A stretch of DNA of 64,000 nucleotides from Candidatus Heimdallarchaeota archaeon (GTDB taxonomy: Archaea; Asgardarchaeota; Heimdallarchaeia; Heimdallarchaeales; Heimdallarchaeaceae): positions 256,001 to 320,000 of the forward strand of contig JAUVXV010000004.1 in NCBI GenBank assembly GCA_030603365.1, written 5' to 3'. Shown here piece after piece: positions 14,735 to 14,914 of this stretch. The translations under genes and the position numbers were made by a program. The notes below the pieces were generated by a model. That model was not told the DNA's origin. It did no database searches and saw only the letters and a list, made by a program, of their open reading frames with translations. The number at the start of each line of letters is the position of its first letter. Within the stretch, counting starts at the first letter, position 1.

Positions 14735-14914
14735 CCTAGTAAGGATTTCAGGTTCGGAATGGGTCTGAGTGTTACCCCCTCACTATGGCCGCGACGTATC
14801 GCAGCGAATGGCTGTTCCCAAGTGATCTCTCAACTTAGTACAGAGCCACACGTCGAAGGGCTTAACTATCCCGAACATCTGGAATGCCTCCAGATGCTTT
14901 CTGACCTTACTAGG
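14735..14914. repeat. Perfect 10-bp inverted repeat forming the outer helix of the 5S precursor BHB
   Basis: CCTAGTAAGG at 14735-14744 and CCTTACTAGG at 14905-14914. Confidence 0.95.
14746..14898 (-). rRNA. rrf: Circularly permuted 5S rRNA (precursor 14735-14914, with terminal BHB motif)
   Basis: On the minus strand the 5S 3' half (GUUAAGCCCUUCGACG...GGGAACAGCCAUUCGCUGCGA, 14866-14799) comes first. It is followed by UACG and then the 5S 5' half (UCGCGGCCAUAGUGAGGGGGUAACACUCAGACCCAUUCCGAACCUGAAA, 14794-14746). Helices I-V, loop C (CCGAAC), loop E and a GAGA tetraloop all fold canonically. Confidence 0.93.

Follow-up and report, generated by a model that had tools for sequence, protein, structure and literature searches.

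How does a ribosome come by its 5S ribosomal RNA (rRNA) in a genome where the standard search finds no gene for it? The 5S rRNA is usually treated as a constant, easily found and linear part of every cellular ribosome. In the DNA described here, a stretch of 64,000 nucleotides (nt) from Candidatus Heimdallarchaeota archaeon (hereafter the window, to which positions refer unless a contig is named), Rfam at its gathering threshold (38 bits for RF00001) gave no 5S match, either in the window or in the whole genome. Here we report that the minus strand from 14914 to 14735 is a circularly permuted 5S rRNA gene, in which the 3′ part is encoded first, helix I is capped by UACG, the 5′ part comes last and the AA bulge of helix III is where the chain opens. 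The best explanation of the available data, and one that we hold with considerable confidence, is that this permuted gene would be matured through a motif of the bulge-helix-bulge (BHB) type into a covalently closed RNA of 121 nt. Searches of the full-text literature returned no permuted or circular 5S rRNA from archaea or any other cellular source and no 5S rRNA with a BHB, in agreement with the preliminary description of this locus, which knew of no permuted cellular 5S gene.

The identity of the molecule rests on its two halves and on what happens when they are exchanged. At a relaxed E-value threshold RF00001 aligns with 22 bits over the 3′ part and with 16.9 bits over the 5′ part, the two matches abutting in swapped order, so that no collinear match above 38 bits exists; linear models thus miss the gene or report it in pieces, as had been anticipated. 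The re-permuted sequence (14794-14747 joined to 14867-14799) was compared by nhmmer with a profile of four conventional Asgard 5S sequences (L087-L090) and gave one full-length match (hmm 5-114, 50.5 bits, E 3e-17). Against the same profile the native sequence gave two partial matches in swapped order, the homology beginning at 14867 and stopping at 14747. This contrast, together with the swapped RF00001 matches, bears out the earlier proposal of a 5S gene opened at the helix III bulge, and the layout lies far beyond what chance would produce. The re-permuted molecule aligns end to end with the four conventional Asgard sequences at 56-65% identity. Furthermore, helices I, II, IV and V emerge from the RNAalifold consensus, and 19 of the 27 pairs of the 5S core show compensatory changes. 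The circular fold of the 121-nt unit contains the capped helix I, helices II and III together with loop C, as well as helices V and IV, arranged around the 5S three-way junction. The architecture of a 5S rRNA is therefore complete: three-way junction, helices I-V, loop A, loop C (CCCAUUCCGAAC), loop E and helix IV. Along the minus strand the 3′ two-thirds (GUUAAGCC...GCUGCGA, 14866-14799) are followed by the UACG cap (14798-14795) and by the 5′ third (UCGCGGCCAUAG...CCCAUUCCGAAC-CUGA, 14794-14748). Three other weak RF00001 matches (L019, L029 and L030) were set aside as chance similarities and not 5S.

What, then, is made from this gene? Logan contigs from four metatranscriptome runs, belonging to four studies, were aligned to 14650-15000 at 80% likeness. 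Their cover is confined to 14746-14867, and in the four runs no contig lies over 14868-14914, which includes a hairpin segment discussed below, or over 14735-14745. Every run has a contig of 137-155 nt with a joint from 14866 to 14746, that is, one that goes back 121 nt; the joint reads ..CCGAACCUGAA(A) to (A)GUUAAGCC (14746/7 to 14866/7), and the contigs that bear it continue unbroken through the helix I cap; loose ends have the form CAUUCCGAACCUGAA|AGUUAAG and ..|GUUAAGUCCUUCCA. The closest of the joint-bearing contigs differ from the window at 4-6 of about 114-118 positions and therefore come from species of the source genus, and the hairpin segment is present in all 17 sequenced species of this genus. 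Since a conventional linear 5S rRNA cannot be crossed at the cap and an unligated permuted RNA cannot be crossed at the joint, both observations together lead to a ring of 121 nt; the simplest reading of the contigs is that the RNA product is this ring, devoid of the 32-nt hairpin segment, the leader and the trailer. The joining of the RNA ends had been predicted in the preliminary description, and the contigs of the four studies carry such a joint. Its details have to be revised: the final 5′ cut had been placed at 14899/14898 and the joint lies 31-32 nt further in, so that a circle of 153 nt gives way to one of 121 nt (the larger one could still be a rare intermediate), the expected junction CCUGAAA|AGCAUCUGG is replaced by contigs that join across that very segment, and the insert, formerly counted as part of the mature RNA, is skipped.

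The new ends of the permuted gene carry the signals that such a joint would demand. In the other Asgard families the leader consists of an outer (h) strand, a 4-nt central (H) strand, a 3-nt bulge and G(U/C)UAAGCC, and the trailer of CCGA(A/C)C, the H′ strand, a 3-nt bulge and the h′ strand. Examination of 61 distinct sequences showed this helix-bulge-helix-bulge arrangement, here called proximal, in 38, whose h helix measures 4-16 base pairs (bp); among these 38 motifs the h strand takes 33 different forms and the H/H′ combination 16. Positions h5-h8, which lay outside the selection criteria, are paired in 30-37 of the 38. Overall, BHB positions are paired in 94.3% of cases, against 55.4% when partners are shuffled among sequences (shuffled maximum 64.7%); these figures are inflated by relatedness, yet the helices are wholly different between families. 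The accepted rule for the archaeal splicing endonuclease is a cut after the second base of each bulge. Applied to these motifs, it always yields a virtual product of the form [helix III 3′ strand]-AA-G(U/C)UAAG, the canonical 5S sequence. A BHB made of leader and trailer, located at the new ends and covarying, is what characterizes the permuted RNA genes matured by splicing, and the swapped halves with fused natural ends are those of the permuted RNA gene described in Thermoproteus.

In the window, the corresponding 5′ half is the H strand CGGG (14873-14870; CAGG in relatives) with the bulge AUA (14869-14867), within the stretch UCGGGAUA, and it pairs with CCUG (14752-14749), which is followed by the bulge AAA (14748-14746). 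The rule predicts a 5′ cut at 14868|14867 or 14867|14866 and a 3′ cut at 14747|14746 or 14746|14745, which would release a mature RNA spanning 14747-14867 (or 14746-14866, an A being shared), and it predicts precisely the observed CCUGAA|AGUUAAG. A second, distal motif surrounds the first: its H strand UCAG (14904-14901), followed by the bulge AAA (14900-14898), pairs with CUGA (14751-14748), followed by AAU (14747-14745), so that a single 3′ half (14752-14745) is common to both motifs. The distal motif is closed by an outer clamp stem between CCUAGUAAGG (14914-14905) and CCUUACUAGG (14744-14735), of 10 bp in the minimum-energy fold or 11 with G14915.U14734, and in relatives all changes in the 3′ strand of this clamp preserve pairing through G.U. 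With an h helix of 10-11 bp, UCAG/CUGA and the bulges AAA and AAU, the distal motif is canonical, and its 5′ site is not the final RNA end; the proximal motif (CGGG/CCUG, bulges AUA and AAA) matches the observed junction, has its outer helix displaced by a 31-nt insertion and becomes canonical only after a first ligation. The earlier description of a BHB at the new ends accordingly stands, and this BHB proves to be conserved; the description fails in that the 5′ end is set by the proximal motif and not by the outer one. A 191-nt stretch comprising the locus folds at -73.3 kcal/mol (z = -4.55; none of 200 shuffles as stable), and in the minimum-energy fold one finds the 10-bp stem at the ends, the 4-bp helix and a bulge of 3 nt. 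The distal UCAG duplicates the internal 5′ strand of helix III, and among 18 aligned copies from the genus it is UCAG in 14, GCAG in three and truncated in one. MAFFT places the proximal element opposite the single leader H strand of the other families, and the second gene copy of Heimdallarchaeum has the same proximal register with an adjacent outer h helix of 5 bp. Judged by these alignments, it is the proximal BHB that corresponds to the one BHB present in other Asgard families. A 7-bp pairing of UCGGGAU (14874-14868) with loop C (AUUCCGA), present in the minimum-energy fold, was dropped, as relatives read ACAGGAA.

From these elements a maturation pathway can be proposed. A promoter of its own would drive the only 5S gene of the source genome, and the precursor, about 185 nt long, would carry the 3′ two-thirds of 5S first, then helix I closed by the UACG tetraloop, and the 5′ third last. 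Leader and trailer would pair into the BHB located at the AA bulge of helix III, the splicing endonuclease would cut behind the second base of each bulge, and RtcB would ligate the new ends, giving the 121-nt closed RNA, in which CCGAAC-CUGA-AA-(A)GUUAAGCC is the canonical junction. Discarded along with the leader stem and the trailer would be the UCAG-AAA element and the hairpin segment of 32 nt. That EndA and RtcB are the acting enzymes is what we infer. The source genome (G000) encodes one RtcB and two EndA paralogues, which are 188 and 180 aa long and 24% identical (C13:113944-114174 and C1:60945-61205), both with N- and C-terminal domains, the second showing a faint Sen15-like match. Two paralogues as divergent as these suggest a heteromeric enzyme, and heteromeric splicing endonucleases accept relaxed motifs.

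The discarded segment deserves attention of its own. Its hairpin (14897-14875) has 8 bp and a 7-nt loop, and A14898-U14874 can lengthen the stem. In relatives it shows compensatory changes, e.g., GCAUUUGG/CCAAAUG and ACAUCUAG/CUAGAUG, and since it covaries though it is discarded, it probably serves processing. An H strand and bulge duplicated with a hairpin in between are found throughout the family Heimdallarchaeaceae and, separately, in the family f18. In the latter (closed 2.8-Mb genomes L072 and L073) the element lies about 40 nt upstream of GUUAAG and reads ggcaaca-CGUG-AGA-[GCCGA..UCGGC]-CGUG-AGA-GUUAAG, with an exact repeat of the H strand; this family is distant from Heimdallarchaeaceae. 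The duplicated layout has two possible histories, a double origin or an ancient origin with loss elsewhere. Two routes through this layout can be envisaged. In one step, the proximal BHB would form within a three-way junction and be cut directly. In two steps, the canonical distal BHB would be cut first to give a ring of 153 nt, in which ligation would create the bulge AA+A; the hairpin, stacked on CGGG/CCUG, would then complete a canonical BHB from which a 32-nt "intron" would be removed. The outer BHB may be used as such a first step. The geometry of the two-step route holds in the window and in L118, L072, L061 and L051 and is looser or ambiguous in many other species; the automatic search for distal motifs gave ambiguous registers in many of them, with A-rich bulges, and the two-step model therefore rests on a subset of sequences. 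We consider the two routes about even, and accordingly give two nested splicing events in Heimdallarchaeaceae an even chance.

Several points weigh against maturation of the permuted gene to a 121-nt ring as just described, and they concern both the motif and the RNA. In the source genus the proximal BHB sits in a three-way junction, without a contiguous outer helix, and the minimum-energy fold favours the distal BHB, the 5′ site of which differs from the final end. The RNA spanning the junction comes from contigs of close relatives and not from raw reads of the source strain: these are assembled contigs from uncultured organisms, 86-99% alike, which are silent on ends, amounts, RNase R resistance and the share of circular molecules, and which would circularise even if only a fraction of the molecules were circular. 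Moreover, the shorter side of the joint measures 24 nt in three of the four contigs and 32 nt in the other, and the cut positions are ambiguous by 1 nt owing to the shared A.

Among the alternatives, the one that survives best accepts the ring and denies that it is the final product: the 121-nt circle would be a processing intermediate, re-opened, e.g., in the helix I cap, to give a linear 5S rRNA with conventional ends. Re-opening is the described maturation of permuted transfer RNAs (tRNAs) (Soma 2007, as cited in PMC4267664), it is known for those of Cyanidioschyzon as well as for the archaeal circular pre-16S/23S rRNAs, and the contigs are compatible with a majority of linear molecules. 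The contigs, though, cross the cap without a break. The 46 distinct helix I caps vary in length (6-13 bp) and in sequence, 26 of them bear stable UNCG-type tetraloops, and no conserved cleavage motif was found among the 46, all of which makes the cap look like a permanent closure. There are also precedents for rings that persist, since the permuted signal recognition particle (SRP) RNA of Thermoproteus remains circular and functional (PMC4731332) and circular 23S rRNA has been reported inside archaeal ribosomes (PMC12918454). We regard re-opening as unlikely, and the 121-nt ring itself as probably the ribosomal 5S, a view that we favour with some reserve.

A linear permuted 5S rRNA, never ligated and relying on the 10-bp stem of leader and trailer to keep its ends together at the helix III bulge, would account for the presence and conservation of that long terminal stem; the helix III bulge is, besides, sterically permissive for 5S expansions (PMC7812874), and the mitochondrial 5S rRNA of brown algae is permuted in its final form (PMC4267664). 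Against it, the joints in the contigs of the four studies skip the stem and the trailer as well as the hairpin segment, none of which the contigs cover, and the conserved 3-nt bulges, the 4-bp helix and the always canonical virtual product would be purposeless, which leaves this arrangement very improbable. Least probable of all is that the joint is artefactual (owing to a relative with conventional gene order, to template switching or to a tandem array of DNA), the permuted locus itself being pseudogenic or wrongly assembled: the contigs are metagenomic, aligned at 80% likeness and with short sides at the joint, and one metagenome-assembled genome (MAG) of the genus, G015, does have a normal-order 5S on another contig, but the contigs that pass the joint pass the helix I cap as well, which is impossible for a conventional linear 5S, the locus is identically assembled in more than 100 independent genomes, closed chromosomes included, no conventional 5S was found in 79 of the 83 genomes of the class, and the 5S of G015 is unrelated in sequence and comes from a MAG with 6% contamination.

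Setting these alternatives aside and returning to the permuted gene matured by splicing, is it the sole source of 5S rRNA, and how widely does it occur? The source assembly (3.65 Mb, 17 contigs) is 89% complete, and within it RF00001 gives no signal outside the permuted locus; the check for a conventional copy, which the preliminary description had called for, thus turned up none. In the same family, the closed, one-contig Heimdallarchaeum genomes G035 and G036 hold two permuted copies each and no conventional 5S. Homologues at the genus level exist in at least 17 species, with 84-88% identity over 250 nt. A covariance model built from 20 permuted sequences (R1) matched in full length in 44 of 47 genomes of the order, in 79 of 83 of the class (seven families, 17 of 18 genera) and in 78 of 151 sampled across the phylum, and a broader model (R2) found the permuted gene in 36 of the 41 genomes of family f14. 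The same layout, with a covarying BHB, is therefore shared by related Asgard genomes, a check that the preliminary description had also proposed, and it extends to about 21 Asgard families. RF00001, searched in the 151 genomes of the phylum, detected conventional 5S genes (45-85 bits) in 25 of 26 genomes of family f11, 17 of 19 of f17 and three of five of f20, as well as in f15, f27 and f28; in the same search, none of the permuted families had one.

A pattern scan of 185,579 species genomes retrieved records of Heimdallarchaeota, Hodarchaeota, Njordarchaeota, Baldrarchaeota, Hermodarchaeota, Jordarchaeales and Promethearchaeota. The scan was narrow and is no proof of absence, and it yielded no permuted 5S outside Asgard. 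Its matches there were rejected as ordinary 5S genes: RF00001 gave them 55-97 bits (73-97 for most, the lowest-scoring one being truncated by a contig end) and R1 gave 20-46 bits or no match. They came from Methanosaeta, Methanomicrobiales, Halorussus, Thermoplasmatota, Nitrososphaerales, Bacteroidales and a betaproteobacterium. Within Asgard, family f4 presents three or four identical permuted copies at contig ends (G021: C77, C90, C106 and C132; G023: C354, C365, C374 and C287), which indicates that its permuted 5S is multi-copy and that assemblies break there. These copies are without the hairpin segment and show a textbook BHB, with CCGC/GCGG, the bulges AAG and AAA and an h helix of 9-10 bp.

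How could such a gene have arisen? In every permuted family the leader H strand copies the internal 5′ strand of helix III. The normal-order 5S of G015 mentioned above, a MAG binned in the same genus (L004:1501-1638, minus strand of contig C117, RF00001 48.3 bits), carries at the helix III bulge a 23-nt insertion in the form of a BHB mini-intron, CACG-GA|A-[CAGUCU AUCG AGACUG]-CGUG-AA|A-GUUAAAC, whose virtual splicing restores ACGG-AA-GUUAAAC. A DNA search of the 151 genomes of the phylum found no close relative of it, and we know of no described intron in a 5S rRNA. Tandem duplication of a gene of this type would generate exactly the permuted layout, and the permuted genes probably derive, although this is speculative, from the tandem duplication of a 5S gene with an intron at the helix III bulge. 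Tandem duplication has also been proposed for the origin of permuted tRNA genes. The complete scenario, in which most Asgard ribosomes, including those of the Heimdall and Hod lineages, which stand closest to eukaryotes, would carry a closed 5S from a permuted gene, with two nested splicings in Heimdallarchaeaceae and, independently, in one other family, equivalent to a BHB intron lying right at the permutation junction, and an origin by tandem duplication of an intron-bearing 5S, is put forward tentatively, at slightly less than an even chance.

Circularly permuted tRNA genes exist in Thermofilum pendens. A close parallel is the SRP RNA of Thermoproteus tenax and T. uzoniensis, produced from a permuted gene and circularised (Plagens et al., 2015, eLife, PMC4731332). 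In both systems the permuted gene encodes an essential structured RNA and is missed by standard models, and the new termini lie in a motif of the type recognized by the tRNA splicing endonuclease and become joined. The Thermoproteus ring is the stable functional form, and its cleavage by the endonuclease as well as its function were shown experimentally, whereas the Asgard 5S is known from sequence and RNA contigs. The latter differs also in concerning 5S rRNA, in extending over about 21 families of a phylum instead of a few species of one genus, and in the second nested BHB and discarded 32-nt hairpin segment that Heimdallarchaeaceae add. The permuted tRNA genes of Cyanidioschyzon merolae (Soma et al., 2007) likewise encode the 3′ half first, have a BHB formed by leader and trailer and pass through a circular RNA. 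As in the 5S case, the BHB of permuted tRNAs is similar to the one that an intron has at this position, a likeness suggestive of tandem duplication of an intron-bearing gene. Unlike the tRNA ring, which is re-opened at its natural ends by RNase P and tRNase Z, the Asgard 5S has its natural ends fused by a stable tetraloop, and no signal for re-opening was seen there.

[quoted passage not shown] They share with the Asgard 5S a BHB in the processing stem of leader and trailer and, as proposed for the latter, cleavage by EndA and ligation of the RtcB type, and the 23S ring may persist in ribosomes. Those genes, by contrast, are collinear with the mature RNA and their rings merely join natural ends, whereas in the Asgard 5S the gene order itself is permuted and helix III cannot be built without ligation. 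According to a 2026 paper, 16S and 23S are circularised "but not 5S rRNAs" (on the exclusion of 5S: PMC10515664; PMC12918454; PMC7758197). In brown algae, the permuted 5S rRNA of mitochondria (Valach et al., 2014, PMC4267664) also has helix I replaced by a closed hairpin and its termini relocated, but it is organellar, has its ends at the junction of the alpha and gamma domains, and is linear and permuted in its final state, with neither BHB nor ligation. Finally, the 5S expansion segments of Thermoanaerobacterales (PMC7812874) designate the universally conserved helix III bulge as a site that tolerates extra sequence; there the insertions are kept in a linear mature RNA, while in the gene described here the extra segment is removed and the site is the ligation junction.

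New for the source genus are the size of the product (121 nt), the loss of the hairpin segment and the nesting of the two BHB motifs. At a broader level, the permuted order accounts for the failure to find 5S genes in these relatives of eukaryotes; eukaryotes themselves have conventional 5S genes. In permuted lineages, annotation pipelines systematically break down, as do MAG quality standards demanding a 5S gene, and a permuted covariance model recovers the gene in about 95% of the genomes of the class. Circularisation by the tRNA splicing machinery would thereby be extended to a core rRNA for which current reviews deny it and, considered together with the reported circular 23S, this suggests large subunits whose RNAs have no free ends. 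The clean split between permuted and conventional families might, in addition, furnish a rare genomic character for phylogeny around the origin of eukaryotes.

The surroundings of the gene would suit an independent unit. On its 5′ side lies an A/T-rich block, AAUAGUAAAGAUUAAAAAACAAU (14955-14933), about 20-40 nt upstream of the leader stem, whose position and composition point to a likely BRE/TATA promoter; it is almost unchanged in 17 genus-level homologues, and the adjoining next 15 nt are variable. Directly 3′ of the clamp stem there is a run of six U (14734-14729), likely an archaeal transcription terminator, and T-runs also follow the stem in relatives. Both elements are compatible with an independent archaeal transcription unit. 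The locus is intergenic, save for a spurious ATG frame of 61 codons on the opposite, plus strand (14759-14944), which gene callers could annotate as a hypothetical protein, hiding the RNA gene. Divergent from the 5S gene, about 130 nt from its leader, the plus strand encodes a class II tRNA of 82 nt with a long variable arm (15044-15125), the anticodon loop of which, UUGCUAA, makes it probably a tRNA-Ser with the anticodon GCU. A further tRNA is found at 51986-52060, on the same strand.
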